Positions 8,596 to 24,960 of a DNA stretch of 64,000 nt are shown in pieces. The first letter of the stretch is position 1, and every line of letters starts with the position of its first letter. The position numbers and the translations under genes are program-made. The DNA lies in contig MAEO01000126.1 of NCBI GenBank assembly GCA_001683985.1, positions 1,308 through 65,307 of the forward strand. Reading direction: 5' to 3'. The notes beneath the pieces were generated by a model that saw only the letters and a program-made list of their open reading frames with translations, was not told the DNA's origin and ran no database searches. The stretch comes from Smithella sp. M82 (lineage in GTDB: Bacteria > Desulfobacterota > Syntrophia > Syntrophales > Smithellaceae).

Positions 8596-8599
8596 TTCA

Positions 8600-10392: not shown

Positions 10393-10754
10393 TTGTATTC
10401 CTCGTAAATGTAATCATCCGGATCGAAATATTCAGATGCCAGCACCATTAAAATAGCATCTTCTGTAAAGTCATGCATAATATGCCAATCATTGGGCTCA
10501 ATTATAAGGCACTTTGACGGCTTATTAAGATAAAAATCTTCTTTTGCAGCGCCATCGTTATTGGATACGACACAACTACCTTTCAGGCAGATAGCCGCCT
10601 GAACAGTTTTGTGATGCCGGTGTCCCCCGCGAACGGAATCATCCACGCCGTAAATATAGAAAATTCTCTTAATCTCAAAAGGAATTACTTTTTCGATTAC
10701 CGTAAGATTGCCGCGTTTATCCGAAAATGTCTTAAGATCGATCAGTTTTGCCAT
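10389..10754 (-). CDS. WxcM/FdtA-like sugar 3,4-ketoisomerase (cupin)
   Basis: From the internal ATG 10754 the sequence reads [40 protein letters not shown], the FdtA-type signature. The track's upstream extension to 10868 overlaps the GT4 gene and looks spurious. Confidence 0.8.
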
Positions 10755-11970
10755 GTGTTTCCTTGTATTTTTCAATATAATATTCAGCGATAGCTTTCCA
10801 GTTGAATTTCGTCTGAATAAGCTCAAGTGATTTTCTTCCCATATCGATACGCAAGCTTTCATCTTCAATTAACCGACTGACTAAAACAGCTAATTTCTTG
10901 TAATCTCCTTCCGGGTGAAGAAAACCGTTAACACCATCGAACACTACAAGATCATTCCCCCCGACATTGGATGCGACGATAGGCCGGCTGCAAGCCATCG
11001 CTTCCGGCACAACCGTATTCAAGCCATCCGGCGGATTTTTCTCCGAAGGCATTAGAAATATATCACACGCCGAATAATAATCGGCCAATTCATTCGCAGT
11101 TACATAACCGATAAATATTACATGTCCGGAAGTATTGTCTTGATTTAAAATTTTCATGTACTCGTTTTTTAAATTACCATCTCCAATAATGGCCAATTTA
11201 ATATTTTTATGTCTTTCTGCAATATATTTTAAAGCCCGAAAAGCCGTGGAGAAACCTTTCTTGGGGATAAACCGACCAATCATTAAAAGCAATATATCGT
11301 CATCGTTTATCGCTAATTTCTCTCTGATAATTTTTCTTTTTTCAGCCGAAAAATATATTTTTCTATCATCAACTCCGTAAATAACATAATCAATTTTCTC
11401 CGAATCGATACCACTTCTGACCAATTCTTCTTTCAAATCGGCGCTATTACAGGATAGGTAATCGGATTTAGCAACAATTCTTGCCATGATTTTCCCTAAT
11501 ATTCCTGTGTTTCTAATGACTGTGACATCCGAGCCCGGAAACGAAGTAAGAATTCTCGTTCTCGAACCGGCAAGCCATTTCGCTCCGACCGCAATGAGTG
11601 TATTAGGGACTGCCCAGTGACAATGCAGAAAGTCATAATTTTCCCGTTTTAATAATCCGGCAAGTTTGATCACCCCGGCAATTATTAAAAATGGCGTCAG
11701 TAAAATTGTCGTTTTTGATATTTGGGTATCGTTTATCATAGAATTACCGTATCCGATCAAATGCCAGGATTTAAACGGCATATATCTATACTCGACTATT
11801 TTTATTTTATCTGCCTTGTCTGTTTTTCTGCGCTCACCTGAATACAATGGCGTAAATACGGTCAGCTCATTTCCTAAATCGGCATACGCCTTAGCAAGCG
11901 ATGCGATAAAGTTTGATCTCCAGTCCCCGATGAAAAAAGGATAAGAATGAGAAACAATGCATATTTTCAT
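10732..11970 (-). CDS. Family 4 (GT-B) glycosyltransferase
   Basis: The N-terminus MKICIVSHSYPFF..GD and the C-terminal ..LMPSEKNPPDGLNTVVPEAMACSRPIVASNVGG.. (E-x7-E region) are typical of GT4. Confidence 0.85.
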   Translation of the reverse strand: MKICIVSHSYPFFIGDWRSNFIASLAKAYADLGNELTVFTPLYSGERRKTDKADKIKIVEYRYMPFKSWHLIGYGNSMINDTQISKTTILLTPFLIIAGVIKLAGLLKRENYDFLHCHWAVPNTLIAVGAKWLAGSRTRILTSFPGSDVTVIRNTGILGKIMARIVAKSDYLSCNSADLKEELVRSGIDSEKIDYVIYGVDDRKIYFSAEKRKIIREKLAINDDDILLLMIGRFIPKKGFSTAFRALKYIAERHKNIKLAIIGDGNLKNEYMKILNQDNTSGHVIFIGYVTANELADYYSACDIFLMPSEKNPPDGLNTVVPEAMACSRPIVASNVGGNDLVVFDGVNGFLHPEGDYKKLAVLVSRLIEDESLRIDMGRKSLELIQTKFNWKAIAEYYIEKYKETHGKTDRS

Positions 11971-12016: not shown

Positions 12017-12166
12017 TTTCCTCTGAAAATGCACATCTGGGTTATTGTTTATATTGTTATTTAAAAACTATCCTCTTCAAATCCCCCTCAATCCCCCTTT
12101 TCTAAAGGGGGGTGAGGGGGGATTTTTATCCTCCTTTGTGACGGCGTGCCGTCATGTGGGTTTCAT
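12017..12166 (+). repeat. Modular hairpin repeat, copy R1 (L arm + 1 hairpin module + R arm)
   Basis: The L arm is tttcctctgaaaatgcacatct..ttatttaaaaactatcc. The core is aaatccccctcaatccccc-ttttctaaa-ggggggtgaggggggattt. The R arm is ..cctttgtgacggcgtgccgtcatgtgggtttcat. R1 aligns with R5 and R6 over both arms. Confidence 0.85.
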
Positions 12167-12404
12167 AACCATATTTTATAAACCTGACATTAATTAAATA
12201 ACTTTACAAAAGCCATGCTTGCATTTAATAATAAAACAAAAATATTATCCAGAAATTAATAATATGGAAGCAATCAATACCGGATATTGTCACTAAATCC
12301 ATAAAGCACCGTTGCTTTTTTAATAAAATTATGTCAATTAAGTTCAGATGAATTTCAATTATCTTCCAGAACATATAGAACAGAACTAATTAATAAGGAA
12401 ACTC

Positions 12405-14483
12405 ATGCTGACAAAAGAAAACGGCTTTTCTTTTCCCATTATTTTCAAATTTCCCGAATTGCCGAAATATTTATTTATTTTCATTTCCCTTTTTATAGTT
12501 TTAATTTCAATTTACTCCAACAGTTTTTATGGGGAATGGCATTTTGATGATTATGCCAATATTGTCGATAATCCTCACATTCAGATGAAATCATTTTCCT
12601 GGCCGGAAATAAAACATTGCATATACGGTCTTGAACAAAAAAGACCGTCACGACCCTTGTCTTATTTAAGTTTCGCTTCCAACTATTATTTCCATGGGAA
12701 GGATGTATTTGGTTATCATGTGGTAAATTTTGCAATTCATTTCTTTGCATCCGTTTTCCTCTTTCTTTTTATTTACAACACATTGAAACTACCCCGACTA
12801 AAGAGTCAATATGAAAGTATTGCCTATCCCATAGCTTCCATCGCGACATTTTTCTGGGCTGTTCATCCTTTATGGGTCACTTCCGTCACTTATGTCGTTC
12901 AGCGAATGGCATCCATGGCCGGACTTTTTTACATTGCCTCCATGTATTTTTATTTAAAGGCACGCACGAATTCAAAATTTAAATATTCATTCTCATTCTT
13001 TATAATTAGTTTATTGTGCGGATTAGCTTCAATACTTACCAAAGAAAACGCAGCAATGCTGCCTGTCAGTATTCTTCTTTTCGATTTATTTCTTATAGCG
13101 GGCATTACCAGGCAAAATGTCATCAAATACGCAAAAATTGCGTTTCTGCCTTTATTAATTATTCTACTTATCGGTCTTATCTACGTTGATTTTTCCAACA
13201 TCCTGGACGAATATAAAATACGTGACTTCACTATGATCGAAAGAGTGATGACACAACCCCGTGTCATTTTATTTTATCTTTCCCTGTTATTTTATCCGAT
13301 TGGTTCACGATTAACTTTTCTTTATGATATTGATGTGTCCCGTTCCCTGCTCCAGCCCTGGACGACAATTCCATCAATATTGTTAATATTATTTATAATT
13401 ATTTTTGCCGTTTATATTGCCCGTAAGCGTCCCTTGATTTCTTTTTGCATTATTTTTTATTTTTTGAATCATCTTATTGAAGGCTCCATTTTCAATCTGG
13501 AATTAATTTATGAACATCGCAACTATTTACCTTCTATGCTTTTATTTATTCCTATTGCGGAATTCATAATTTACGTTATCGATTATTTTTCTTATAATAA
13601 AATCATTCAGTTTATAGTTGCTTTGGGCATAGCTATAATCATTACCGGAGAAGGCGACATCACCTACACTCGCAACAAAATAGTTTCTGATGATTTTCTC
13701 TTGTGGTTTGATAATATCGAAAAATCTCCGGCCCTGAGCAGACCGCACGCCAACACCGGCAGAATATATTTCATGTATAATCAAAAAGAAAAAGCGCTTC
13801 AGGAATACAAAAAAGCAATGGCTTTAAACAACTTTGGAAATAATGATATCCTGGCTATTCAACAATGCAACCTGGGCATATTGTATTTTGAAATGATGCA
13901 GGATGAGCCGGCTATGGAATGCTTCAGGAAGTCTTCTGCAATACTTCCTGAATATATACAAACCAATATTCATATAGCCAAAATAAAACTGCGCCATAAT
14001 AAAATCGAAGAGGCCAAACAAATAGTTTTAGATAAATTAAAAAAATACCGATCAGAGCCCAAGGTAATGGAACTATTAAGTCTTATACTGTTAAAAGACG
14101 GACAAATTAATGGCGCTCGATTTCTTGCCCGGAAACTTCTGGCAAAAGACCCGGATTCACTGCCCGCGCTGATGATCATGGCCGAAATCTGCCGCATAAA
14201 AAATAATTATCCGGTTGCCGTCTTGTTTTGGAAATCCGTCCGTTCGCTATCCCGGCAGAATGCTTTTGCCAATCTGGCGCTTATTGAATTGTACGCAAAG
14301 ATAAAAGATGAGAAAAAGTTGAATGCGGAAATTCGTCTCTTATATTACTTAAAAGGCTCCTTAAAATTAAGCGAATACATTCAAATGTTGAACAAAGATA
14401 AGAATCTAAATATATATGTTCCTAAACTCGAAAACTTTTCAGATGAAACCCACATGACGGCATGCCGTCACAAAGGAGGATAA
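12405..14483 (+). CDS. Polytopic membrane protein with C-terminal TPR repeats; GT-C (PMT/TMTC-like) glycosyltransferase candidate
   Basis: 692 aa with about 11-12 hydrophobic helices in aa 1-430. The first-loop motif WHFDDYANIVDNPHIQ resembles the DD/DE loop of PMT/TMTC-type GT-C enzymes. aa 450-650 contain TPR-like repeats. The last 12 codons (ETHMTACRHKGG*) are encoded by repeat copy R2. Confidence 0.55.
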   Translation: MLTKENGFSFPIIFKFPELPKYLFIFISLFIVLISIYSNSFYGEWHFDDYANIVDNPHIQMKSFSWPEIKHCIYGLEQKRPSRPLSYLSFASNYYFHGKDVFGYHVVNFAIHFFASVFLFLFIYNTLKLPRLKSQYESIAYPIASIATFFWAVHPLWVTSVTYVVQRMASMAGLFYIASMYFYLKARTNSKFKYSFSFFIISLLCGLASILTKENAAMLPVSILLFDLFLIAGITRQNVIKYAKIAFLPLLIILLIGLIYVDFSNILDEYKIRDFTMIERVMTQPRVILFYLSLLFYPIGSRLTFLYDIDVSRSLLQPWTTIPSILLILFIIIFAVYIARKRPLISFCIIFYFLNHLIEGSIFNLELIYEHRNYLPSMLLFIPIAEFIIYVIDYFSYNKIIQFIVALGIAIIITGEGDITYTRNKIVSDDFLLWFDNIEKSPALSRPHANTGRIYFMYNQKEKALQEYKKAMALNNFGNNDILAIQQCNLGILYFEMMQDEPAMECFRKSSAILPEYIQTNIHIAKIKLRHNKIEEAKQIVLDKLKKYRSEPKVMELLSLILLKDGQINGARFLARKLLAKDPDSLPALMIMAEICRIKNNYPVAVLFWKSVRSLSRQNAFANLALIELYAKIKDEKKLNAEIRLLYYLKGSLKLSEYIQMLNKDKNLNIYVPKLENFSDETHMTACRHKGG

Positions 14484-14648
14484 AAATCCCCCCTCACCCC
14501 CCTTTAGAAAAGGGGGGAAATCAAGCCCTGCCTTCTTTGCCCAAGAAGGGAACTCCCCCTTGAGAAAAGGGGGGAAATCAAGCCCTGCCTTCTTTGCCCA
14601 AGAAGGGAACTTCCCCCTTTAGAAAAGGGGGATTGAGGAGGATTTGAT
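14443..14648 (-). repeat. Modular hairpin repeat, copy R2 (R arm + 3 hairpin modules, L arm missing; internal 57-58-bp tandem duplication)
   Basis: R2 starts atgaaacccacatgacggcatgccgtcacaaaggagg, the reverse complement of the R1 R arm with 1 mismatch. The units at 14506-14562 and 14563-14620 are near-identical (agaaaaggggggaaatcaagccctgccttctttgcccaagaagggaact..). Confidence 0.85.
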
Positions 14649-14677
14649 AGCGTGATTTATAAATCACGCTATTTTTT
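14649..14677 (+). terminator. Rho-independent terminator (plus strand)
   Basis: AGCGTGATTT-at-AAATCACGCT perfect hairpin followed by aTTTTTT. There is no T-run on the opposite strand. Confidence 0.6.
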
Positions 14678-14698
14678 CAACAAATCCATTTTTCTATC

Positions 14699-15073
14699 TT
14701 ACAGATCCGGATAATACCATGTTCCGGTTTGGGCTTCGTCTAAAGTAGCACCTTTCACTGAATTTACCGTGATTAAAATATTGTTTCCGTCCGGGCCCGC
14801 TGTCACAGTATAATCATCACCGAGATCTAGGTCAGCTTGTACGGACGCCAGAACAGAACCAGGTGAAGTCGTTCCATTACCCCTCAACATCTGCGAAGCG
14901 TAATAATTACTCGCTCGCGCTTTTACCTCGGCAATCGCCGACTGAGCGGCAGCTCTTCGGGACTCTTCCATCATGCTAAGGTACCTGGGAATAGCAACCG
15001 CGGCTAAAATTCCTAAAATAACCAACACCGCAATGATTTCAATCAACGTAAAACCTTTTTCATTTTTTAACAT
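14699..15073 (-). CDS. Type IV major pilin (MshA-position)
   Basis: The 124-aa ORF has leader MLKNEKG|FTLIEIIAVLVILGILAAVAIP (G-1, F+1, E+5) and a small globular C-terminus. It lies next to the mshG/E-like genes and has a sigma54-type promoter upstream. Confidence 0.85.
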   Translation of the reverse strand: MLKNEKGFTLIEIIAVLVILGILAAVAIPRYLSMMEESRRAAAQSAIAEVKARASNYYASQMLRGNGTTSPGSVLASVQADLDLGDDYTVTAGPDGNNILITVNSVKGATLDEAQTGTWYYPDL

Positions 15074-15127
15074 TTTCCATCCCTCCTTATAGTTTTTTAC
15101 ATAATATTACTTTTTGCAGCCAACTGC

Positions 15128-15200
15128 TTCATCTGAAAATGCACATCTAAATCAAATCCCCCTCAATCCCCCTTTTTCTAAAGGGGGAAGTTCCTCTCTT
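15128..15200 (+). repeat. Modular hairpin repeat, copy R3 (short L arm + first hairpin; left half of a split copy)
   Basis: ttcatctgaaaatgcacatctaaatcaaatccccctcaatccccctttttctaaagggggaagttcctctctt matches R6 up to the ccctcttt arm of hairpin B. Confidence 0.75.
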
Positions 15201-15222
15201 CATAAATTTATATTTATAAAAA

Positions 15223-15238
15223 AGCAAAAGCTATGCCA
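15223..15238 (-). promoter_or_regulatory. Sigma54 (-24/-12) promoter candidate for the pilin gene
   Basis: The minus strand reads TGGCAT-AGCTT-TTGCT. The GG and GC are spaced exactly as in TGGCAC-N5-TTGCW, and the site is about 150 nt upstream of the pilin ATG (15073). Confidence 0.6.
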
Positions 15239-15414
15239 TTTCCGATACAATACAAACAATTTACTTGTATTAATTAATATAATTTCTAACTTATTCAATT
15301 ACTTCAATTTCTATTTATTGTCAACTTTAATATTTACATCAGTAATGATTCCTTAATAACACCATATTCAAAAAATTGATGTTTTATCTACAATTATTGT
15401 AGGCTTCTTAAACT

Positions 15415-15488
15415 AAAGAGGGCAGGGCCTGAGTTCCCCCCCCCCTTTTCTAAAGGGGGGTGAGGGGGGATTAAGGGGAGGGTGAAAG
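15415..15488 (+). repeat. Modular hairpin repeat, copy R4 (right half of split copy; C10 tract; degenerate R arm)
   Basis: aaagagggcagggcctgagtt-C10-ttttctaaaggggggtgaggggggatt matches R6 61409-61465. R4 has 10 C (15436-15445) where R6 has 6. Confidence 0.75.
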
Positions 15489-15555
15489 TTTATATTACCC
15501 ACTCACTTTGAGAAAGAACCAGATTCCAGATTTGTCTTATTTCTCTGTTTCCGTA

Positions 15556-16779
15556 TCAATGTTTTCCGGCCAGCTTTGTAAGATCCCACATCGGCAAAAA
15601 TATGGCTAAGGCAAAAAACCCGACAATCGCCGCCAACCCGACAATAAGAACAGGACCTATGGCATCGGAAAGACCTTTGATTGCATATTCAACTTCATCA
15701 TCGTAATGTTTGGCAATTTCACGCAACATTTCATCAATGTTACCCGATTCTTCACCAATCGCAATCATATCAATGACCATCGGGGTAAAATATTTTGCCG
15801 ATTTCAAAGGCGCTGAAATTCCAGCCCCTTCCTTAATTCGATCACGAATATGTTCAAATGATCTGGTCAGAGCTTCATTACCCATTGTGGCGGAAAGAAT
15901 AGTCAGCGATTGCATAATGGGAACACCGCTTGCCTGTAAAATAGCAAATATACTGGCAAAACGTGATAATGCCGCTTTCTTGAATAATTGTCCCACTATG
16001 GGAAGTTCCAATAAGAAACTATCCCTGACAAATTTGCCGTTTTTCGTTTTAAAATAATAAGCTAAGCCGAAAACAACTATTGCTGTTATAGTAAGAATTA
16101 TATACCAGTATTTGGCCAGAAAATTGTATAAAAACATGGCAATTCTTGTCGGCAGCGGCAAAACCAGCCCGGCAGTTTTAAAAACAGAAACAAATTGAGG
16201 TATTACAACAGTTAAAAGAACAACAAACGCTATACTTAAAGCAATAACAATTATCATCGGATATCTAACTGCCGATTTGATATCCGCTTTGACTTTCTCT
16301 TCGTGTTCGATGATGTAGATCAGACGATCTAAAACGATGGGAACATTTCCGCTCATCTCGCCTGCCTTGATCATATTACAGTAAAGACTGGAAAATATTT
16401 TAGGAAATTTCTCCAATGCCTCCGAAAAAGACAGACCCTGTTTGATATCCTGAATTATTGATAATATCGCTTTTTTTAAGCCGTGACTTTCAGTCTGGTT
16501 TGCCAAAATATCCAAGAGTCTGAGCATCGGCACGCCGGCAACCAGCATAGATCGTAATTGTTTTGTAAAAATAATCAAATCCGTCATTTTGACTCTGTCC
16601 GAACTAAACAGCGACTGCAACAGGCTTTCATCTCCTGATTTACTTTGTTCCTTTATTTTTGAAGGTATGAGATTGCGTGACATCAATATGGAATTTGCTA
16701 TTTGAATTGATTCAGCTTCCATGGTTCCGGAGACAGTATTTCCGCTGTCGTTAATTGCTTCGTAAAAATAGTTGGGCAT
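15556..16779 (-). CDS. mshG: Type IV pilus / T2SS platform protein (PilC/GspF family), MshG-like
   Basis: 407 aa with the duplicated GspF-domain pattern (..AGEMSGN.. and ..IGEESGN..) and three TM helices. It lies immediately downstream of the ATPase gene. Confidence 0.88.
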   Translation of the reverse strand: MPNYFYEAINDSGNTVSGTMEAESIQIANSILMSRNLIPSKIKEQSKSGDESLLQSLFSSDRVKMTDLIIFTKQLRSMLVAGVPMLRLLDILANQTESHGLKKAILSIIQDIKQGLSFSEALEKFPKIFSSLYCNMIKAGEMSGNVPIVLDRLIYIIEHEEKVKADIKSAVRYPMIIVIALSIAFVVLLTVVIPQFVSVFKTAGLVLPLPTRIAMFLYNFLAKYWYIILTITAIVVFGLAYYFKTKNGKFVRDSFLLELPIVGQLFKKAALSRFASIFAILQASGVPIMQSLTILSATMGNEALTRSFEHIRDRIKEGAGISAPLKSAKYFTPMVIDMIAIGEESGNIDEMLREIAKHYDDEVEYAIKGLSDAIGPVLIVGLAAIVGFFALAIFLPMWDLTKLAGKH

Positions 16780-16797
16780 TTTTATCCTTACCTGAAT

Positions 16798-18504
16798 TTA
16801 AGACATAACCGCGGAAGCCGCTTCTTCCAAAGTTGTAATTCCCTGCATCACTTTTTGGGCGGAATCATCTCTCAGTGTTTTCAATTTTCCGGCAGCTACC
16901 GCAGCGCGTGTAATTTCCTGACTAGAGCTCTGTTTGATAATCATGTCCTGAATCATTTCGTCATTGACCAAAACTTCAAAAATGCCGGTTCTTCCCTTAT
17001 ATCCGGTATTTCTGCAACTATTACAGCCTCTGCCCCGCTGAAAATTGGCATTGGCCGCCTGTTCCGGCGTGATTCCCAAAGCAGCCAGAGCCTTTGCCGG
17101 CGGATTATAACGCTCTTTACAATACGGACAGATGGTGCGCACCAACCGTTGAGCAAAAGAAACTATCAAAACAGACGACACCAGGTAAGGTTCGATGCCC
17201 ATATCAATAAATCGAGTTATAACTCCTGCGGCATCATTAGTATGCACTGTGCTTAGAACTCTATGTCCGGTCTCTGCCGCCTGCATGGCTACGGCGGCTG
17301 TTTCCGCATCTCTGATTTCGCCGACCATAATTACATCCGGATCCTGACGAAGTATCGAACGCAAACCGCCGGCAAAGGTCATTCCCGCTTTACGGTTCAA
17401 CTGCACCTGGCGTATATCATTGATTCTATATTCTACCGGATCTTCCAGGGTTATTATATTTATGTCCGGTTTGTTTATTGAACTCAATATTGCGTAAAGA
17501 CTGGTGCTCTTGCCGCTTCCCGTAGGCCCTGTGCTTAAAATCATTCCGTATGGTTTATTGGCCATGGCTTCTATTTTGGCCATGTCTTCTTCGGTCATGC
17601 CCAAACGATCAAGCGTATAAAAACCGGCGCCCATATCCAACAGACGCATGACAATATTTTCTCCGTAAATTGTGGGAATTGAAGATACTCTGACGTTTAT
17701 TTCCTTCTTTTCTATCTTGAGAGTAAATCGTCCGTCCTGAGGGATTCTGGAAACAGTAATGTCCATGTTGGCAATAATCTTCACGCGGGCAATGATGGAT
17801 AAGAATATTGACTTGGGCGGCGAGGGCATTTCTATCAATTTGCCGTCAATACGATAACGCAACTGCACTGTATTCTGCTGCGGACTGATATGGATATCGC
17901 TGGCATTATCACGGACAGCCTGAGCAAAAATGGAATTGGTCAGACGAATAATCAGCGCTTCTCCCGCCATATCCTGCAACGATGCGATTTGGATTTCTTC
18001 TTTATTTTCCGGCTCTTCATCCTCGCCCCTGGATTCTATTTCCATGGTTCCCATAATATTGCCCAGATCGGACTGCATGCCATACATACTATTTATAAGC
18101 TGATTGATTTCCACTTCCGTACAAATTACCGGCTCAACTTCCAGGTCGGTTAATTTTTCAAGAGAATCCAAAATTTGTATATCCAGAGGATCGACAATTG
18201 CAACGGTCAAAAGTTTGCCTTTCAATTTTAAAGGAACCACCTGATTTTTTTGCGCGATTTCAATCGGTATATATCGAACCAGCTCCAGATCCAGCGGAAA
18301 ATCATTGAGCTGATATTTCCTTATGTTGAGTTGATCGCTGATCAAATCTATTATTTGTTTTTCCTGAACCAGTCCCTGGCGGATTAAATACTGACCAAGC
18401 TTCAAATCTGTCTTCTTTTGATTTTCCAATGCCTGTTCGAGCTTTTTCTCGGTCAAAATTCCGCTTTTAACCAGTAGTTCACCCAGACGTCTTTTATCTT
18501 TCAT
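16798..18504 (-). CDS. mshE: Type IV pilus assembly ATPase (GspE/PilB family) with MshEN-type N-terminal domain
   Basis: Walker A GPTGSGKST, Asp/His boxes and a tetracysteine CPYC..CNSC are present. The N-terminus carries two 24-aa RLGxxLVxxGILxxxxLxxALxxQ-type motifs separated by 5 aa. Confidence 0.9.
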   Translation of the reverse strand: MKDKRRLGELLVKSGILTEKKLEQALENQKKTDLKLGQYLIRQGLVQEKQIIDLISDQLNIRKYQLNDFPLDLELVRYIPIEIAQKNQVVPLKLKGKLLTVAIVDPLDIQILDSLEKLTDLEVEPVICTEVEINQLINSMYGMQSDLGNIMGTMEIESRGEDEEPENKEEIQIASLQDMAGEALIIRLTNSIFAQAVRDNASDIHISPQQNTVQLRYRIDGKLIEMPSPPKSIFLSIIARVKIIANMDITVSRIPQDGRFTLKIEKKEINVRVSSIPTIYGENIVMRLLDMGAGFYTLDRLGMTEEDMAKIEAMANKPYGMILSTGPTGSGKSTSLYAILSSINKPDINIITLEDPVEYRINDIRQVQLNRKAGMTFAGGLRSILRQDPDVIMVGEIRDAETAAVAMQAAETGHRVLSTVHTNDAAGVITRFIDMGIEPYLVSSVLIVSFAQRLVRTICPYCKERYNPPAKALAALGITPEQAANANFQRGRGCNSCRNTGYKGRTGIFEVLVNDEMIQDMIIKQSSSQEITRAAVAAGKLKTLRDDSAQKVMQGITTLEEAASAVMS

Positions 18505-18528
18505 TTATCCTCCGGACAACTTAAAACC

Positions 18529-20079
18529 TCAACGCTGCAACTTACGGCGATTAAAAAAAACTGTGTCTGCATCCCATTGAGATAATATTTTTGTTTTTTC
18601 AGCAGCCGGCGGCGGCAGCTTGCCGATTGCTTCCTGTGCCGCGCGAATATCCCGGAAACATTTATCAATTACAATCGCAAAATTAATGCCGTCTTTTTTA
18701 TTCCAAAAGGAAAAGAAAACCACCGCAGGCATCTTTTGCCGAAAAGAATCATCTTGAAAAACATTATACACTATTTCCAAATCTTTTCCACTTTCCACAG
18801 CAGCAATTATATCGCCATCAGTTATCGGTTTTATATCTGCAGGAATCAAGGGCAGCTCTATTTTTTCTCCCTCAACAATTATATTTTTATTCTTGATATG
18901 AGGATTCGCTGCAGTTAATGCGTTGATTATTTCCGGCCTTGCCTCGCCATATATATTATACGCTGTCCACCAAAGAGTTCGTCTTTTTGTCATTGTTAAC
19001 TTTCCAAGACACTCAGGCATTATCCAATTCTTTTTTTCATCCTGTTGAGTACTTACTTTACCGGTAGATACAAATACTGGATCTGTTTTTTCAGCATTCG
19101 AAGTCATTGGAATAGCTAAGGTTCCGGCTAATTGCTTATGCCCCGCTGTATATTGGCGCTGAAATACAATTGCTCCCAGCGAAAGGCTCACTATAATAAC
19201 AACAGAAACACTCCCCAACGCCCACTTCAACATTCTTAATGATGGCGTTGCCATATCATTAATACAGCTTCTGACCATAAACCAGCCGGCTTTATTCTTT
19301 TGACGAATGATCATTGTTAAGACTACCTGATGACAAAGAATAACCACTTTGCGCGGATAGCCGCCAGTCGCCAGATAAACAGCTACAAGCCCCCCAAAAG
19401 TAAACAAAGACGGCGCCGTTTCATTATCCCGGGCGACACGGAGACGATGATTGATCATTGCCCGCATTTGTTTGAAACTCAAAGGTTGAAGATGATAGAG
19501 AAGATTAACTCTATCAAGAAGATTAGGATGCTTTTTAAGAATCGTTTGGAATTCTTTTTGCGCAAAGATTATTATCTGCAGCAGCTTAAAGTTATTTGTT
19601 TCATAATTAAGAAATTCACGCAAAATTTCCAGGCAATTCTCCGGAATTTTTTGTCCTTCGTCAATAATCAGAACAATTATTTTTTTTTCATCTACTCCTT
19701 TGTCAAAAAGATAATTTTTAATTCTTTCTTTTAAATGCCATTCACTTTCAAAATTATTCAGATCTTTAATTCCCAGCATCAAGGCAACAGTCTGCAGGAA
19801 TTCAACAACGCTGTTAAATGCCGGATCAAGCAAAAGGTGAGTTTCAATTTCTGCAGAATCTGCCGTAACAGAAGAGAAATTCCGGATAAGTTTCCTGCAC
19901 AAAGTGGTTTTGCCGGCGCCAATGTCTCCTATTACGACATTAATGCCACGGCGCAGACGAACAGCCAACTCCAGCTTTTGCAGGCAGCTTGTCTGTTGTG
20001 GCAACTGAAAAAGAAATTCCGGTTCCGGCGAGTTGGAAAATGGCTCCTTCTTAAAATTGAGAATATTGTAATAATCCAT
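18529..20079 (-). CDS. mshM: ExeA/MshM-like AAA ATPase with TM helix and C-terminal LysM-like region
   Basis: Walker A reads VIGDIGAGKTTL and Walker B reads IIVLIIDEGQ. A mid-protein TM helix (WALGSVSVVIIVSLSLGAIVF) is followed by the C-terminal ..YNIYGEARPEIINALTAANPHIKNKNIIVEGEKIELPLIP, which is LysM-like. The position between the secretin and ATPase genes matches mshM. Confidence 0.75.
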   Translation of the reverse strand: MDYYNILNFKKEPFSNSPEPEFLFQLPQQTSCLQKLELAVRLRRGINVVIGDIGAGKTTLCRKLIRNFSSVTADSAEIETHLLLDPAFNSVVEFLQTVALMLGIKDLNNFESEWHLKERIKNYLFDKGVDEKKIIVLIIDEGQKIPENCLEILREFLNYETNNFKLLQIIIFAQKEFQTILKKHPNLLDRVNLLYHLQPLSFKQMRAMINHRLRVARDNETAPSLFTFGGLVAVYLATGGYPRKVVILCHQVVLTMIIRQKNKAGWFMVRSCINDMATPSLRMLKWALGSVSVVIIVSLSLGAIVFQRQYTAGHKQLAGTLAIPMTSNAEKTDPVFVSTGKVSTQQDEKKNWIMPECLGKLTMTKRRTLWWTAYNIYGEARPEIINALTAANPHIKNKNIIVEGEKIELPLIPADIKPITDGDIIAAVESGKDLEIVYNVFQDDSFRQKMPAVVFFSFWNKKDGINFAIVIDKCFRDIRAAQEAIGKLPPPAAEKTKILSQWDADTVFFNRRKLQR

Positions 20080-20115
20080 TTTTAGACGCCATCTTGATAT
20101 TTAATACGCTATTGC

Positions 20116-21672
20116 TTACTTTACAACCGGCAATATATGAGGGGTAATAAATATAAGAACCTCTTCCATTTTATCGCTTTTACTATCAGACTTAAAAGCC
20201 CAGCCCAATATAGGAAGATCTTTTAACCAGGGAACACCGTTGCCGGCATCGGATTTTGTTTGCTTGGTTAATCCTGAAATAACGATTGTTTCACCATCTT
20301 CAACAATTAATATCGTTTTTGTTTGCTTCTTGATAATATAAGGGTCTCCCAACGATGATTTTCGTGTCATATCCACTTCATCTTTTTTGACTGTAATCTC
20401 CATTTTCAAATTTTTGCCGTCAATGACATGGGGCTTAATTTGTAAACGCAACAGAACATCTTCAAAATTTGTGGTTTGAGTAGGCGCGCTGCCCTGAGAT
20501 GTCTCGAGTGTTACAAAAGGAACTCTTTCACCATTTTCGGTGAAGGCTTCCTGATTATCCAAAGTTGTGATAGATGGACTGGATAAGATATTTAATTTAT
20601 TGTCCTGTTGAAGCGCCTGGAGTTGCACTTCCAGAAAATTTCCGTCGGTTTTCCCGAACAATAAACCTAAAGAGCCGGCGGCTGTGCTTGTTAAATTATT
20701 CGCTTGAAAATTCAACCCTAAAGGAGCGCCTCCGACACCAAAAGGCCCATTGGCGATTGGATTAATTTCAGATGTCGAAGTTGTTCTGGTTCCGCCTCCT
20801 GATACTATAACATTATTTCCGGCAAGATTAGATCCTTTATTATATCCTCCCCACATAATTCCCAAATCACGGGCAACGCCCTTGGTTGTTTCCACGATAT
20901 TGGCTTTAATTAAAATCTGTGGTGTTGGTTTATCCAATTTTTCAATAACGGGCATTATCTTGGTCAGATCATCACGCAAAGCGGAAATAACCAGAGAATT
21001 GGTGTGTTCATCAACTTTAATTGAACCTCGCGGTTTATTATCCTTATCTTTGGTAAGTAAATCCTGAACTGTTTCTGCAAGCTTTTTGGTATCGGCATAG
21101 TTTATATTTACCACTACCGGATCCAAAAGAGACTCCACCCATTGGGTATCGCGCAGCTGCTGTTTTCTTTCTAAATCCAGTTTAACGTCTTCACTGGTCA
21201 GCACTCTGATTACATTGCCCTCCCATATATAAGATAAATTATAGGTGCGCAACAAACCGGTAAACGCCGAATCCCAGGGAACTCCACGAAAATCAACGCT
21301 AATTTCACCTTTCAACTCATCCTTAACCAGGATGTTCAAGTTGACAGATTTCGCCATAGCCCGCAGCACTGCTTTGAGCTCAGCCTGCCGCATAGTCAGA
21401 TTAATTCGATCAGTAGGTAATTTTCTTACTGTTGCTTCAGCTACGGGTATGGACGCCTGTTTTGCAGTAACAGAAATTTTCTTGGGTTCGGCGGAGGGAG
21501 AGTGGCCTTGCGATTTTTCGGCTAAAGTAGTCCATTTATCAAAGAAAGAATCCCTCTTCTCACTTTTAAGTCCATCAGCGCAGCCGAACAAAAATATCAG
21601 TGCGAAAAAAGCGAGATTTAATATAATGATTTTTTTATTTCTTGCAGAGTATTTCAAATCGCCAACCTCCAA
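20116..21672 (-). CDS. mshL: Type IV pilus secretin (PilQ/MshL family), lipoprotein-type N-terminus
   Basis: Lipobox LFGC. The secretin C-domain pattern reads ..LNILSSPSITTLDNQEA.. and ..VPWLKDLPILGWAFKS..EEVLIFITPHIL. Confidence 0.9.
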   Translation of the reverse strand: MEVGDLKYSARNKKIIILNLAFFALIFLFGCADGLKSEKRDSFFDKWTTLAEKSQGHSPSAEPKKISVTAKQASIPVAEATVRKLPTDRINLTMRQAELKAVLRAMAKSVNLNILVKDELKGEISVDFRGVPWDSAFTGLLRTYNLSYIWEGNVIRVLTSEDVKLDLERKQQLRDTQWVESLLDPVVVNINYADTKKLAETVQDLLTKDKDNKPRGSIKVDEHTNSLVISALRDDLTKIMPVIEKLDKPTPQILIKANIVETTKGVARDLGIMWGGYNKGSNLAGNNVIVSGGGTRTTSTSEINPIANGPFGVGGAPLGLNFQANNLTSTAAGSLGLLFGKTDGNFLEVQLQALQQDNKLNILSSPSITTLDNQEAFTENGERVPFVTLETSQGSAPTQTTNFEDVLLRLQIKPHVIDGKNLKMEITVKKDEVDMTRKSSLGDPYIIKKQTKTILIVEDGETIVISGLTKQTKSDAGNGVPWLKDLPILGWAFKSDSKSDKMEEVLIFITPHILPVVK

Positions 21673-21681
21673 TGGAATTTT

Positions 21682-22182
21682 TTATTCTTGCAGGGGAATT
21701 TCTTCTCTGTCTCCGGTATTTTTATTAAAGATAATAACTTTAGAAGGCGTAATCTGCCTTAAGAAGTACCCTTCCATTTCTAATTGTTCCCCTATCCTGT
21801 ATTCCAAACCGTTAATAATGGCCATTTTATTTTTTCCGGAATCCACATAACCGGAATAAATTATTTTGGCTGTGACACTGCCTTTGTCAGCATTTTCTTT
21901 CGCCGCCCACTCTTTATACAGATCTCTCTTCCAGAAAGGATCTTTATTCCAATCAGATTCTATTTTTTTAACCACATACATATCAAAATCAGTTAACTTA
22001 TCTTTGCTTAATTCATTTGTCAGTTCGCTCAACGAAGTATTTTTTTTCGCAGAATCAACATTAGCGCTTGTTTGGACTTTTTTATCCGCCGGACGGGCAA
22101 TCAAGAATTCATAACCTGCATATAAAACAAATAAACCGGCTATTGCTAAAATTATGATTTCCCGTTTTTTTAATTTACCCAT
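21682..22182 (-). CDS. MshK/PilP-position pilus biogenesis protein
   Basis: 166 aa with an N-terminal TM helix. The C-terminal IIYSGYVDSGKNKMAIINGLEYRIGEQLEMEGYFLRQITPSKVII resembles the GspB/MshK-type beta domain. The call is mainly positional. Confidence 0.45.
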   Translation of the reverse strand: MGKLKKREIIILAIAGLFVLYAGYEFLIARPADKKVQTSANVDSAKKNTSLSELTNELSKDKLTDFDMYVVKKIESDWNKDPFWKRDLYKEWAAKENADKGSVTAKIIYSGYVDSGKNKMAIINGLEYRIGEQLEMEGYFLRQITPSKVIIFNKNTGDREEIPLQE

Positions 22183-22202
22183 AAATACTCTATGCCACTC
22201 TG

Positions 22203-22751
22203 CTACTTAACAGCTATCCGGATTTTCATTTTAAATTCCATAGAATAAGGTTGCTGCTGAACATTAATCTCCTCTATTCTATCCAAATAAGGAACAGATC
22301 CCAATCCGATCAACATTTTCCGAAAATCGGCGAATTCTCCTTTCAACACGACGTTATGTAAAAAGGATGTGGAAGAACCAGCCAATGTGCTTAAATCCGG
22401 TGTAAATGACATTATGGTTAATCCTGCCTTTCCCGCTATTGCCCGGAAATCATCCTGAAACTTCCCCGCTTCCGAGCGGGGTATTGTTGTTTTCTCAGGA
22501 CTGGGAAAAAGACGCACTGTTTTATCATCAGCGCTTTTGAGCAAATTTAAATACACCGGCCCCAGTTCTTTTTGTTCTTCAATTTTATATTTCAATTCCT
22601 GATTCTCTTTATTCAGAGAAGAATTATATTTATACAAAGGGAAAATTCCCACGAGAACAATAAGGAATATAATGCCGCCATAAATTACCAGATACCAGAA
22701 ATTTTTCGGATCTACGTTAATATTCAATCCTTTAATATTCAACTTCTTCAT
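22203..22751 (-). CDS. PilO/MshJ-like pilus assembly protein
   Basis: 182 aa with an N-terminal TM helix followed by a coiled-coil (NKENQELKYKIEEQKEL). It sits between the pilMN-like and secretin genes. Confidence 0.55.
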   Translation of the reverse strand: MKKLNIKGLNINVDPKNFWYLVIYGGIIFLIVLVGIFPLYKYNSSLNKENQELKYKIEEQKELGPVYLNLLKSADDKTVRLFPSPEKTTIPRSEAGKFQDDFRAIAGKAGLTIMSFTPDLSTLAGSSTSFLHNVVLKGEFADFRKMLIGLGSVPYLDRIEEINVQQQPYSMEFKMKIRIAVK

Positions 22752-22756
22752 CGTGG

Positions 22757-24637
22757 CTAACCTATTTTAGCGCTCAAAATAAAATGCAGGATTTCATTTT
22801 TCTTAAAAGTGACAATGCTGTTTTTTTGTATCGATACATGACTCAACATCGGTGAATTTTCCAGTTTCATCACATACCGGGATAAATTTGAATCGAGCAT
22901 ATTTCTCGGTCCTGAAATAACTCCCTGAATTATAACCTCTGTGCCTTTATCGGCTTCCTTTGATGCTTTATCATCGGTTTTGGGCAAAGCTTTTTCTTCG
23001 GCTATTTTAAGACCGATTAGATGAATATCGGGTGATGTAATATCAGATACTTCTCCAATCACCGCCATTCCCGAATACCTATGAACATATTGACGGGCGA
23101 TTTTTCTTTTCATCTTCACTTCGTCGGCTATCTTAGAAACTTTATCAACCGACAAAAGCGGATTTAAAAGCGCCAAATCCTTCCTCAGTTTTTCCTGTTG
23201 TTTTGCAGCAGAATTTATTTGGAAGCCTTGATAGACTATTAAGAGAAGACAAGCAAACAGAGCTGCCAGAAAGGACAAGAAAGTTATTTTATTGATTCTT
23301 TTTATATTTATTTCCTTATCTTTTTCATAATAAGTAAAAACAGCATTAGGAGTATGTTTATTGTCCGACAAGGAAAGACCAAGGGCAGGAGCCAGAAATA
23401 TTCTCTCAGAAATATTTAAAGACTTGACAGAAGACGGAACCGTCTGCTGCCGGAAAGGGTCAAAGAACTCTGTCTTTATTTCCAGTTGATCACTTAAGTA
23501 GTCCCGAATAGAATTATAAACATTAATCGACGATAATATGTAAATTTTTTCAATTTTTTTATTTTCGCCGGCAGATGTGTAATGTTTCAACGTCATATCT
23601 ACCTGGCGAGCCAATCTTTCCCATACCGGAAAAATCATCTCCAATATCTCTTCTTTTTTAAAATCGTAACCGAAATCTGTATTTTTTAGTTTTTCCGAAT
23701 CCGGACTAAGACTGCATAGAATTTTTTTTGCTTCATCATTTCTTAATCTTACATTTCCTGTTTTTTCCAGGACGGACTCGATAATTGCTTCCACCATGCT
23801 GCTGTTGCCGGTCTTGACGCTGCGGGTCATTACCAGATTTTCTTTATTGAAAACATCGATACGGGAAAAATCATTGCCGATAAACAAACTGACAAACACC
23901 TCTTTAATCGCCGGCATCCATCCGGATCGAAAAATATTTTGTATTGCAAATGAAATTATTGTAATTCCGGCAAGAGTTATTCCGATATCAGAAAACAAAG
24001 TTTTAATTTTTTCAATTTCCGCTTTGGGCGCGGTATAAACCATAACGGAATATTTGGGGTTAACTTTTTCAACTATCTCATTTTGTATTTCAAAATCAAA
24101 AACCGATTTTTCATCATCAATGTAACCTTCTTTTTTCGCCGTCCAATATACTACATTTCCCAGTTGTTTTTTGGGCACACGCGGAACTTTAAGGTAATAG
24201 ACGTTAACCTCGCTTGTCGATACATTTGTCCAGATATCACAATTCGCCGGCGAACCGCAAAAAGCAGCCAAAGAAGATTTTAAAAGCGCAATGAACTCCG
24301 ATGAATCTTTAGATATCTGAGGACCGAACTTGACGATTCTCTGATCAACTAAAACCGACTTGTCGCCAAGACCTTTGACAGTCTTAACCAGGCGAATAAA
24401 TTCCCTGCCGATATCAACACCGACTGTATAATTTTTTTTATTAGAAAATCGTTTGGGGAAAGTTAATTTGATTTTTTTTAGCGGCTTTTTTCCGGAAAAA
24501 GCCGCTTCCGGTCTTTGCAATGATGTAAAAGATTTTTCATCTTTTTTGCGTATAGCATTAAGAAGTTTTTCCGTTGAGTTTATATCTTTATTTATCTCCG
24601 ACAATAAAAACCCCCTATCATTTTGATTTTTTATCAA
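22757..24637 (-). CDS. PilM-PilN fusion-type pilus assembly protein (MshI-like)
   Basis: 626 aa. The actin-like ATPase fold signature (YTVGVDIGREFIRLV..) is followed by a TM helix (ITFLSFLAALFACLLLIVY) and a PilN-like periplasmic part. The TTG start at 24637 is uncertain. Confidence 0.7.
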   Translation of the reverse strand: MIKNQNDRGFLLSEINKDINSTEKLLNAIRKKDEKSFTSLQRPEAAFSGKKPLKKIKLTFPKRFSNKKNYTVGVDIGREFIRLVKTVKGLGDKSVLVDQRIVKFGPQISKDSSEFIALLKSSLAAFCGSPANCDIWTNVSTSEVNVYYLKVPRVPKKQLGNVVYWTAKKEGYIDDEKSVFDFEIQNEIVEKVNPKYSVMVYTAPKAEIEKIKTLFSDIGITLAGITIISFAIQNIFRSGWMPAIKEVFVSLFIGNDFSRIDVFNKENLVMTRSVKTGNSSMVEAIIESVLEKTGNVRLRNDEAKKILCSLSPDSEKLKNTDFGYDFKKEEILEMIFPVWERLARQVDMTLKHYTSAGENKKIEKIYILSSINVYNSIRDYLSDQLEIKTEFFDPFRQQTVPSSVKSLNISERIFLAPALGLSLSDNKHTPNAVFTYYEKDKEINIKRINKITFLSFLAALFACLLLIVYQGFQINSAAKQQEKLRKDLALLNPLLSVDKVSKIADEVKMKRKIARQYVHRYSGMAVIGEVSDITSPDIHLIGLKIAEEKALPKTDDKASKEADKGTEVIIQGVISGPRNMLDSNLSRYVMKLENSPMLSHVSIQKNSIVTFKKNEILHFILSAKIG

Positions 24638-24769
24638 TCTTTTTATATTGTTGCAAGAAAATAATACATACTTTTTACATTATTGCAAGGAAATAATATG
24701 ATATTTCTTAAAGATGTTTCGGATGAAATAGTTTAATTAAAGGTCTTGAATGATTATCGGGTTTTTGTT

Positions 24770-24960
24770 ATGAACCCACATGGCGGTATCCGTCACAAAG
24801 GAGCATGAAAATCCCCCCTCACCCCCCTTTAGAAAAGGGGGGATGCCCTCTTTGCCCAAGAGGGGAACTTCCCCCTTTAGAAAAGGGGGATTGAGGGGGA
24901 TTTGATGAGGATAGTTTTTAAATAACAATATAAACAATAACTTAGATGTGTATTTTCGAG
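24770..24960 (-). repeat. Modular hairpin repeat, copy R5 (full length, 2 hairpin-A modules + hairpin B)
   Basis: The reverse complement aligns end-to-end with R6 and R1 (ctcgaaaatacacatctaagttattgtttatattgttatttaaaaactatcc ... ccgccatgtgggttcat). Confidence 0.85.

Follow-up and report, generated by a model that had tools for sequence, protein, structure and literature searches.

MITEPpu9 is the transposase-less partner of ISPpu9, moved by it in trans, and has a small palindrome near its left end (PMC12288879). In this pair from Pseudomonas putida KT2440 (IS110 family), short boxes matching both ends of the insertion sequence (IS) enclose a cargo other than a transposase, the sRNA gene ssr9. 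Several copies are scattered in intergenic DNA, insertion is site-specific without duplication, and circle excision was shown experimentally; ISPpu9 targets REP sequences. Our literature searches on transposase-less elements with IS110 ends yielded this one registered precedent, and a 2024 review of MITEs never mentions IS110. The IS1111 group (IS1111, IS4321/IS5075 and the attC-targeting group) is defined by ends of unequal length, short on the left and longer on the right, with subterminal inverted repeats of 7–17 bp (PMC11208160). Its members encode a DEDD recombinase, have a structured right end, the expected seat of the bridge RNA, and insert orientation-specifically without target-site duplication. 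Small hairpin-bearing MITEs tied to an IS1111-group IS occur in Coxiella burnetii (QMITE2/IS1111; PMC5896051; PMC10969869). Mosaic palindromic units with variable copy number, clustered and nested in intergenic DNA, are known as BIMEs in E. coli and as BOX/RUP/SPRITE clusters in S. pneumoniae (PMC10969869).

Six repeats in the 64,000 nt of DNA analysed here (the window) add a natural case in which elements made of IS110/IS1111 ends lack a transposase. Judged by sequence comparison, they are very likely non-autonomous, MITE-like mini-elements derived from an IS110-family (IS1111-group) IS. They share with MITEPpu9 the lack of a transposase, the short boxes matching both IS ends, the scatter of several copies in intergenic DNA and site-specific insertion without duplication. 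The palindrome GCCC-N4-GGGC of MITEPpu9 has its counterpart in TGACGG-N4-CCGTCA. Host and IS lineage differ. The cargo is a nested GC-hairpin cassette with a variable number of units instead of an sRNA gene, the target is similar to the junction of the element's own right and left ends instead of a REP sequence, and the excised circle is here a postulated step. Full-length relatives of the repeats share with the IS1111 group the DEDD recombinase, the short left and long right ends, the subterminal repeats of 7–17 bp and a right end that is both conserved and structured, whereas the window copies hold only about 45 and 60 nt of the termini, without recombinase or bridge-RNA region. The Coxiella MITE/IS pairs flank the icm/dot secretion-system cluster as the window copies flank an Msh-type pilus; there, however, the REP of the MITE is the target of IS1111, while here the MITE is made of IS ends and the hairpin is internal cargo. 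BIMEs and the pneumococcal clusters consist of species-specific units and have no IS110-type termini.

A preceding sequence-only reading had described a mobile, MITE-like repeat family of six copies with an L arm, a hairpin part and an R arm. Positions, orientations, this three-part architecture and the gene context were all recovered. Copy R1 (12017–12166, plus strand) is a complete mini-IS with an inner unit count of zero. Its L arm (about 12023–12078) is the terminus of the IS right end, followed by the outer GC hairpin (12079–12124) and an R arm (12122–12166) that is the terminus of the IS left end and holds the TGACGG-N4-CCGTCA stem. The transposase of the parent IS is oriented opposite to the strand given for R1. 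R5 (24770–24960, minus) is complete with one shortened inner unit and lies in the intergenic region between divergent PilM-like and YkuD genes. R6 (61297–61503, plus) is complete with one inner unit, lies 36 kb from the pilus locus and is surrounded by amidase and NDH-2 gene fragments between TetR and Lon genes. R2 (14443–14648, minus) comprises an R arm (14443–14487) and a hairpin cassette with two 57-nt units; the L arm is absent. The internal tandem duplication noted before is an array at 14498–14631 with a period of 57, 2.3 copies and 96% matches. R3 and R4 are truncated: in R3 (15128–15200, plus) the initial ~22 nt of the L arm are joined to hairpin A and hairpin B's left half, while R4 (15415–15488, plus) has hairpin B's right half together with the outer hairpin A, without R arm. 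The six copies occupy five intergenic sites; four of these follow one another around the type IV (Msh-like) pilus locus.

Arms of 71–114 nt share 91–99% identity from copy to copy in a pairwise repeat comparison (I2, 114 nt, 95%; I4, 95 nt, 93%; I5, 87 nt, 95%; I6, 74 nt, 99%; I7, 71 nt, 96%; D8, 95 nt, 91%). With up to three mismatches, hairpin A (CCCCCTTTTCTAAAGGGGG) gave 17 strand-matches at 10 places, all within the copies, against a chance expectation of 0.02. Matches of the L-arm start and of the R-arm palindrome in the window were also confined to the copies. Hairpins A and B had been thought to alternate side by side, but they are nested. A single long outer hairpin houses the 57-nt units in its loop, and their number differs among copies as proposed, between zero and two: none in R1, one each in R5, R6 and R3 plus R4 together, and two in R2. 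The weak inverted similarity reported for the ends is an inverted repeat, recast here as a subterminal repeat of about 12 bp typical of IS1111-group elements, in which TGAAA(nnn)CACAT pairs with ATGTG(nnn)TTTCA; the pairing is visible in the folds. RNA folding predicted rod-like structures with z = −3.3 to −5.1. Open reading frames called over the repeats are spurious, as suspected. An Rfam search of the whole window at the gathering threshold, and of the locus and full-length ISs by E-value, gave no meaningful family. Exact searches with the L arm (a 29-mer in viral contigs, a 25-mer in metagenome contigs) found no matches, so the AT-rich middle of this arm is rare.

The parent was identified by the arms. 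The exact R arm was found in 15 metagenome contigs. In three of them (L067, L068 and L076) it lies about 100 nt upstream of an open reading frame with a DEDD_Tnp_IS110 domain (E = 2e-30) and a Transposase_20 domain (2e-13 in L067 and L068). L067 and L068 have 1598 nt in common at 87% identity, bounded by CTGAAAATACACCTCT, the start of the L arm, and CATGTGGGTTTCAT, the end of the R arm. The R arm of the copies matches the IS left end at 40–42 of 45 nt (89–93% identity), and the L arm matches the IS right end at 43 of 58 nt, with 26 of 31 nt at the terminus (74–84% identity). These full-length ISs of ~1.6 kb come from other metagenomes and not demonstrably from the host genome; two look-ups for the full IS in samples holding the window's strain returned other samples. 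Several contigs break inside an arm and the transposase lies on contigs of ~1.2–2 kb, which is typical of a multicopy IS. Contigs bearing the transposase number in the hundreds; homologues of the recombinase are named IS110 family transposase by NCBI, and a 93%-identical transposase is labelled Syntrophales. The nearest relatives of the window's MshE carry the labels Deltaproteobacteria bacterium HGW and Smithella; the latter genus belongs to Syntrophales.

The parent IS has a left end of ~135 nt, a right end of ~230 nt and a subterminal repeat of ~12 bp, all within the IS1111-group definition. The right end contains a conserved structured block, with one compensatory pair among four sequences only; for a bridge RNA, no Rfam model matched the full-length ISs. 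The arms match the IS termini and no main open reading frame of the window has a transposase or recombinase domain, in agreement with the earlier statement that a transposase is missing. The copies are therefore non-autonomous mini-ISs. Both ends match those of an autonomous IS known from other metagenomes, the copies measure 150–207 bp, below the ~500 bp usual for MITEs, and several are similar. The inverted repeats are subterminal and imperfect and a target-site duplication is lacking, so the copies are MITE-like in behaviour and not MITEs in the classical sense of terminal inverted repeats plus duplication. This is expected for IS110-family derivatives. The GC hairpin is absent from the full-length ISs, and short relatives carry other inner GC hairpins (L066, L071, L077). 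Another idea considered, on the model of Coxiella or P. putida, was that the IS targets the hairpins. This was rejected: no hairpin flanks the full-length copies, and the hairpins are enclosed by the two ends in mini-IS order.

A further reading treats the arms as incidental and the GC hairpins as REP/REPIN units, mobilised by an IS200-like Y1 transposase (RAYT), or as PATEs of the IS200/IS605 family. The hairpins are indeed short, abundant, palindromic and mostly extragenic in the window, and are nested and clustered like BIMEs. Their ends read AATCCCCC...GGGGGATT and lack the GTAG or CGTC tag by which two REP superfamilies are marked in the description cited (PMC3733652). No Y1 transposase is encoded by the open reading frames of the window, in 62 loci the hairpin has no recurrent enzyme family as its neighbour, and REPs have not been reported as identical across phyla or in frame within genes. 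The arms match IS110-family ends and not IS200/IS605 ends. We give this reading almost no weight.

The mini-IS assignment agrees with the insertion sites. Compared with empty sites in two relatives (L081 and L084), R5 is a clean insertion, and a classical target-site duplication was not found in this comparison. At eight independent sites the left flank is TTTCAyT and the right flank AT-rich, that is, insertion is site- and orientation-specific. It adjoins a sequence like the junction of the element itself (TTTTCAG/ATGAAAC in transposase orientation, the slash marking the junction). The left junction of R1 was also seen in another strain (L080). By analogy with ISPpu9/MITEPpu9, a DEDD recombinase guided by a bridge RNA probably moves the copies in trans. 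A complete copy consists of the last ~55–60 nt of the IS right end (L arm), the nested GC-hairpin cargo and the first ~45 nt of the left end (R arm) with its small stem-loop. A full-length IS elsewhere in the genome would provide the recombinase and the bridge RNA, the latter presumably encoded in the part of the long right end that the mini-elements have lost. Both may work in trans on the retained termini and excise the mini-element as a small circle, whose right-end/left-end junction would read ...CATTTTCAG/ATGAAACCCACAT..., and the circle could re-insert at junction-like, AT-rich intergenic sites. Such elements bear on the way in which bridge-RNA recombinases work in trans on minimal donor sites, here of only ~45 and ~60 nt.

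The repeats had been interpreted as an integral mark of the boundaries between pilus transcription units. Six orthologous pilus loci of relatives (84–94% MshE identity) have the same operons and no element at all. This speaks against the interpretation: the sites are empty in the relatives, so the copies are lineage-specific insertions and not conserved boundary signals. A 98%-identical strain has R2, R3 and R4, and this presence/absence polymorphism is evidence of movement. In this lineage the copies sit at deletion or replacement junctions. The clustering at the locus is only moderately significant: p = 0.002–0.012 when intergenic gaps are counted, four consecutive gaps being filled, and p = 0.10 in a distance-based test.

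R2 overlaps the 3′ end of the TPR gene, taking in its final 13 codons and stop codon (the open reading frame ends at 14483), the one case in which a window copy reaches into a gene. Beside it lies a native AT-rich terminator hairpin (AGCGTGATTTATAAATCACGCT, 14649–14676, z = −6.7 to −7.7) that does not belong to the repeat. R2 has taken the place of its U-tract on the pilin side, while the T-run facing the TPR gene is still there; in L081, which has no R2 at this site, the hairpin is followed by T8. R3 is placed between the sigma-54 promoter (predicted start at about 15212) and the ribosome-binding site of the pilin gene, in a stretch of 87 nt that corresponds to 21 nt in L081, and would hence fall in the predicted pilin 5′ UTR. 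The only sigma-54 −24/−12 match in the window (TGGCATAGCTTTTGCT, 15223–15238) belongs to a native pilin promoter segment between R3 and R4 (15201–15415, minus strand), which is 78.7% identical to positions 14387–14600 of L081. Its last 22 nt (15394–15415) are the remains of a deleted sigma-54 activator gene. R4 marks this deletion of ~1.4 kb; the activator gene is present in all relatives examined. The pilin gene has thus kept its sigma-54 promoter and lost the adjacent activator gene, a testable account of strain-level differences in piliation among Smithella-like syntrophs. Exact-protein look-ups for the YkuD and CMAS neighbours gave no matches.

R3 and R4 are complementary halves of one cassette. 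A single element split by foreign DNA was considered and discarded because the 215 bp between them are native promoter DNA, colinear with the relatives. Such halves around native DNA would need two separate deletions initiated at hairpin tips, which is plausible. The insertions are recent, and their long palindromes have probably served as hot spots of rearrangement. At R4 the sigma-54 activator gene, and at R3 one of the arms, would have been lost through deletions that began at the tip of hairpin B. R2 has replaced the pilin terminator U-tract and re-coded the C-terminus of the TPR protein, and R1 lies at the edge of a swapped glycan cassette. Long palindromic cargo would thereby have acted as a local mutagen in a surface-structure locus.

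Selection of the copies as boundary modules between the glycan, TPR, pilin and msh units, working as bidirectional terminators, insulators or RNA-processing sites, is unlikely in our assessment. The four filled gaps fit such a role, the hairpins are highly stable and in one orientation carry a GGGGGGATTTTTAT tail, R2 occupies the former place of the pilin U-tract, R3 would lie in the pilin 5′ UTR, and the conservation of R2, R3 and R4 in the 98%-identical strain is in line with it. The six orthologous loci, however, have the same operon structure without elements, so the boundaries work without copies. A consensus scan for intrinsic terminators called none of the copies: the stems are bulged, the loop has 9 nt and the T-run is partly paired in the stem. 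The native terminator hairpin beside R2 was kept, R6 is in a decaying region unrelated to pili, several copies are truncated at deletion junctions, and clustering by distance is weak. For mini-ISs, an effect on transcript boundaries, by termination or by stabilisation of the pilin 5′ UTR through R3, is a plausible by-product and not the reason for the copies.

The orientations alternate (+, −, +, −) over R1, R2, R3/R4 and R5. The left end of R2 (14443) and the right end of R5 (24960) face each other and bracket the pilin gene and the msh operon, a 10.5-kb pilus cluster, like a composite transposon. The copies could accordingly be substrates of programmed recombination, with the IS recombinase inverting, excising or mobilising pilus modules, and phase variation or transfer of a pilus island as the outcome. 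ISPpu9 circles form from varied combinations of end boxes (PMC12288879), bridge recombinases are capable of DNA insertion, excision and inversion (PMC11208160), and every element lies at a junction of conserved and variable DNA. Nevertheless, two independent assemblies (L063 and L064) show the same arrangement, R2, R3 and R4 each miss one end, four elements alternate by chance with a probability of 0.125, and no recombinase was shown in the host genome. Programmed recombination is a very unlikely function of the mini-ISs.

The GC hairpin is a module separate from the arms and far more widespread. It has ~45–54 nt of the form AATCCCCCC-NNN-CCCCCC-TTTTCTAAA-GGGGGG-TGA-GGGGGGATT. An identical 32-nt core occurs in MAGs whose labels cover at least six phyla (labels: Nitrospirota, Thermodesulfobacteriota/Deltaproteobacteria, Nitrospinota, Aminicenantes, Abyssobacteria, Gammaproteobacteria and Brocadiia), and a core of ~50 nt is nearly invariant over many phyla. 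The hairpin stays nearly constant while flanking orthologous genes diverge by 20–25%. It nests within itself and rides on IS1111-type mini-elements; outside the window it occurs alone, often in frame within genes. Neither the 32-mer core nor the end of the R arm was present in viral contigs, and nothing thus points to a phage vector. When all open reading frames of the 62 loci were clustered, what emerged were ubiquitous superfamilies alone (ABC ATPases, sigma-54 activators, response regulators and HlyD) and no enzyme linked to the hairpin. Literature searches on the hairpin sequence, its peptides and in-frame palindromic elements in Nitrospirota found no description of it. Tentatively, the hairpin could be a previously undescribed palindromic element that spreads horizontally in its own right, although we consider this somewhat less probable than its opposite. 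As no linked enzyme was found, a self-standing element would spread by a mechanism that is new or, at the least, unassigned.

This core, identical over phylum-level lineages and tolerated in frame within genes, is the most interesting by-product of the analysis and raises the questions of its route of spread and the cause of the strong sequence constraint. Rickettsia palindromic elements (RPEs; PMC10969869) are similar in being palindromic inserts in frame in unrelated housekeeping genes, where they encode short peptides in loops or linkers. RPEs are ~100–150 bp and confined to Rickettsia; the hairpin core is ~45–54 nt, GC-rich and cross-phylum, and by sequence it is not a member of any RPE family. 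The RPE-like position is seen in foreign copies and not in those of the window. About a third of the foreign hairpin copies (23 of 64) are spanned by long open reading frames, with MurD, Mfd, MnmA and LeuRS among the genes concerned, some of which are essential. The encoded peptides are of the PPLEKGGRGDL type. Pfam domains are found on both sides of the in-frame inserts. Against the solved structures of MnmA and MurD, the inserts appear as gaps or breaks, and the encoded peptide is a 15-residue Pro/Gly-rich loop.

Six copies of a hairpin-bearing repeat were confirmed in the window by direct sequence reading and a systematic repeat search: R1 (12017-12166, plus strand), R2 (14443-14648, minus), R3 (15128-15200, plus), R4 (15415-15488, plus), R5 (24770-24960, minus) and R6 (61297-61503, plus). 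R3 and R4 are truncated. GC hairpins A and B lie between an AT-rich L arm and an R arm with a TGACGG-N4-CCGTCA palindrome. The arms share 91-99% identity between copies over 71-114 nt. In a motif search of the window, hairpin A gave 17 strand-matches at 10 places, all within the copies (expected 0.02), and the L-arm start and the R-arm palindrome were equally copy-specific. The sequence-only reading had described a MITE-like family at the boundaries of pilus-locus transcription units, and its gene context agrees with the annotation: a glycan operon (GT4/FdtA/aminotransferase, minus strand), a TPR-containing membrane protein (12405-14483, plus), the pilin gene (14699-15073, minus), a series of GspF, MshE, AAA22 ATPase, secretin, two small ORFs and a PilM-like gene (15556-24637, minus) and a YkuD-family gene (from 25001, plus). 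R6, flanked by a TetR gene and Lon, is separated from this locus by 36 kb. Short ORFs beside it (61022-61216 and 61549-61975) resemble remnants of an amidase C-terminus and an NDH-2/FAD-dependent oxidoreductase (GGGFGG motif), placing R6 in a region of gene decay.

The arms correspond to the termini of an IS110-family insertion sequence (IS). A metagenome scan matched the R arm in 15 contigs. On contigs L067, L068 and L076, the R arm is followed, about 100 nt downstream, by an ORF encoding DEDD_Tnp_IS110 and Transposase_20 domains. L067 and L068 have a common block of 1598 nt (87% identity) that begins with CTGAAAATACACCTCT, the start of the window L arm, and finishes with CATGTGGGTTTCAT, the end of the R arm. 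The R arm is identical to the left-end terminus of the IS in 40-42 of 45 nt, the L arm to the right-end terminus in 43 of 58 nt and, at the tip, in 26 of 31 nt. Several R-arm contigs end within the arm and homologous transposases are mostly on contigs of 1.2-2 kb, which is the pattern of multicopy ISs. One homologue (93% identity) carries the label 'IS110 family transposase [Syntrophales bacterium]'. The transposase ORFs of L067 (557-1564) and L068 (4832-5881) stop at 335-349 aa near a T/A run; intact homologues (P0129-P0131) have 403-407 aa. An assembly error, a frameshift or a programmed shift could account for the short ORFs. The window MshE matches a protein of a 'Deltaproteobacteria bacterium HGW' MAG with 94% identity and Smithella proteins with 80-84%, which makes the host a Smithella-like member of the Syntrophales, the order to which Smithella belongs.

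In the parent IS, the left end is about 135 nt and the right end about 230 nt long, with subterminal inverted repeats of about 12 bp. This layout is that of the IS1111 group as defined by Durrant et al. (2024; PMC11208160), who assigned the bridge RNA to the right end. Four full-length copies contain a strongly conserved, structured block in this end; this number of sequences is too small for real support by covariation, and no Rfam model matched the block. Because the arms match IS termini and the window lacks an IS110-type gene (best tblastn E = 1.4) and, in domain searches of its ORFs, other transposase or recombinase domains, the copies are best read as transposase-less mini-ISs, with GC hairpins between a right-end and a left-end terminus. 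The absence of a transposase had been noted before. The description as MITE-like thus stands, and the arm matches name an IS110/IS1111 parent. MITEPpu9 of ISPpu9 is a direct precedent: IS-end boxes surround an sRNA gene, a small palindrome lies near the left end and the transposase acts in trans, excising minicircles (PMC12288879). Short relatives with different inner GC hairpins are present on L066, L071 and L077.

Every complete copy is predicted to form one long fold (z = -3.3 to -5.1). The weak inverted similarity reported for the ends is reflected in it: the subterminal inverted repeats pair, TGAAA..CACAT with ATGTG..TTTCA, and the R-arm palindrome forms a separate stem. The GC part folds as one long outer hairpin, AATCCCCC-TCA-ATCCCCC / GGGGGG-TGA-GGGGGGATT. 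Units of 57 nt, each containing hairpin B, occupy its loop: none in R1, one in R5, R6 and R3+R4 and two in R2, where TRF verified the proposed tandem duplication (57-nt period, 2.3 copies). The number of modules is variable, as proposed, but according to the folds the units nest inside the outer-hairpin loop and do not alternate side by side with hairpin A.

The hairpin is distributed far beyond the Syntrophales. The exact 32-mer CCCCCTTTTCTAAAGGGGGGTGAGGGGGGATT was found at 62 loci (L001-L062) of a species-representative genome set. The MAG labels were Nitrospirota/Thermodesulfovibrionia, Thermodesulfobacteriota/Deltaproteobacteria/Syntrophales, Nitrospinota, Aminicenantes, Abyssobacteria, Gammaproteobacteria and Brocadiia; within the GC hairpin core of about 50 nt, 32 nt are the same in MAGs assigned by label to at least six phyla. 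None of these loci has anything in common with the window beyond the element, and most resemble it only in the hairpin of about 40-57 nt. L057, L026 and L038 have longer matches to the nested cassette or the R arm (72-80% identity). A long ORF with at least 40 codons on either side runs through the hairpin in 23 of 64 copies (e.g., L018:58-1779, L027:989-4180, L032:906-3632 and L054:7240-7998). Pfam detected the expected domains on both sides in MurD, Mfd, P-type ATPase, RecO, LeuRS, MnmA, FolC, fumarase and Ogg proteins, and the in-frame translations read IPPHPPLEKGGRGDL, NPPSPPFRKGGxGGF and PPFLKGGEGGL. Against solved structures, the insert is a clean gap in MnmA (2DER) and causes breaks at three sites in MurD. 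The L018 MurD has two inserts missing from its L060 orthologue; the insert common to both is almost identical, with flanks of about 80% identity. The hairpin behaves like a Rickettsia palindromic element, yet is not one. Clustering of neighbouring ORFs revealed no enzyme recurring beside it in the 62 loci, a search of viral contigs did not detect it, and our literature searches found no published description. In some Nitrospirota and Desulfobacterota loci, a tail resembling an IS left end follows this hairpin; the stem-loop of the tail differs in sequence, and the tail ends in ..TTCAT. The association of hairpin and mini-IS is therefore itself widespread. In Thermodesulfobacteriota MAGs (L003, L026, L048, L052 and L057), the core belongs to another short element, whose inverted termini are tattactacggcaa...ttgccggagtaata, so the hairpin rides on more than one kind of carrier. 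The window element may be described as an IS1111-type mini-element with a pan-phylum palindromic cargo.

The empty site of R5 is preserved in the related locus L081 as AAAAAGCAGTGTTTCCAT|AGCAAAAAC; the window element sits exactly at the bar, without a target-site duplication. TTTCAyT precedes the L arm at eight independent junctions and mimics the R-arm tip. The left flank of R1 in strain L080 is GTGGGTTTCAT|CTGAAAATG, and the R-arm tip of R2 is followed by CTGAAAA. Judging from these flanks, the preferred target resembles the right-end/left-end junction of the element (in transposase orientation, TTTTCAG|ATGAAAC). Such a target is consistent with site-specific recombination at a common core and with the known behaviour of the IS1111 group. 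The element also favours AT-rich intergenic DNA near gene starts.

A conserved role as boundary signal was not borne out by the comparison of orthologous loci, a check already proposed with the claim. Six loci with the same operons (MshE identity 94% in L081-L083, 88% in L084, 84% in L085 and L086) all lack the element motifs, with up to three mismatches allowed. R2, R3 and R4 are common to the window and a 98%-identical strain (L063, L064). The copies are therefore lineage-specific insertions. Clustering at the locus is suggestive only, with post hoc p values of 0.002-0.012 (gap count) and 0.10 (distance). The hairpins are predicted to be very stable and one orientation ends in GGGGGGATTTTTAT; part of the T-run is paired inside the stem, and a consensus terminator scan called none of the copies. 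We conclude that the copies are selfish insertions, not conserved boundary signals, with side-effects that may matter.

The copies coincide with rearrangements at the locus. All six related loci have a sigma-54 activator gene (PilR-like, 437-440 aa) between GspF and pilin. It is missing from the window (15394-15529 versus L081:12981-14408, about 1.4 kb gone), and domain searches detected no sigma-54 activator domain anywhere in the 64 kb. The last 22 nt of the gene (15394-15415) adjoin the hairpin-B loop in R4. Native pilin promoter DNA makes up the 215 bp between R3 and R4; this segment has 78.7% identity to L081 and contains the sole sigma-54 -24/-12 match of the window (15223-15238), and R3 is located between this promoter and the pilin ribosome-binding site. 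Pilin has kept its sigma-54 promoter though the adjacent activator gene was deleted, a loss that may affect its expression; R3 may act as a stem-loop in the 5' UTR. The cassette halves retained by R3 and R4 are complementary. Long palindromes are known to break at their hairpin tips (SbcCD). In the simplest account, two copies would each have undergone a deletion from the hairpin-B tip inward, leading away from GspF and from pilin.

R2, which lacks its own L arm, took the place of the U-tract of the native pilin terminator and about 45 nt beyond, and may be a substitute terminator. The TPR ORF extends 40 nt into R2 (14443-14483), so that the IS left-end terminus supplies its last 13 residues (DETHMTACRHKGG). 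Without R2, the frame would continue for four native codons (ERDL) and stop at a TAA in the native terminator-hairpin loop. In the relatives, the TPR gene is preceded by co-oriented glycan genes. At this place the window carries another glycan cassette (6206-11970) in divergent orientation, without DNA-level homology to L081:17730-21710, and R1 marks the junction of the TPR side and this swapped cassette. The pilin cassette also varies between close relatives: compared with window 14699-15073 (124 aa), the pilin of L063 (4470-4850, 126 aa), a strain 98% identical over MshE and GspF, has a divergent C-terminal half, and L081 has two tandem pilin genes.

The window also contains other repeats. 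An unrelated 27-nt palindrome (TGTCATTTCGAGCRAAGCGAGAAATCT) occurs at 4643-4669 (minus) and 55486-55512 (plus), both intergenic, with none expected by chance; similar motifs of the GTCATTGCGAGCG.. type are present in some foreign loci, such as L015. A 329-nt inverted repeat with 73% identity (27550-27878 and 35507-35835, also 25950-26314) is the Cds6_C/NTF2-like C-terminal domain common to the YkuD protein, a TPR protein and an OEP outer-membrane protein. Tandem 102-nt units (26527-27103, 62-73% identity) inside a TPR-repeat gene are ordinary TPR repeats at the DNA level. That surface-structure loci abound in the window is seen from a Lap-type adhesin system (38023-49284), which comprises a C39-ABC exporter, an HlyD protein, a 1285-aa VWA/RTX protein, a BTLCP (LapG-like) protease and a LapD-like GGDEF-EAL receptor.
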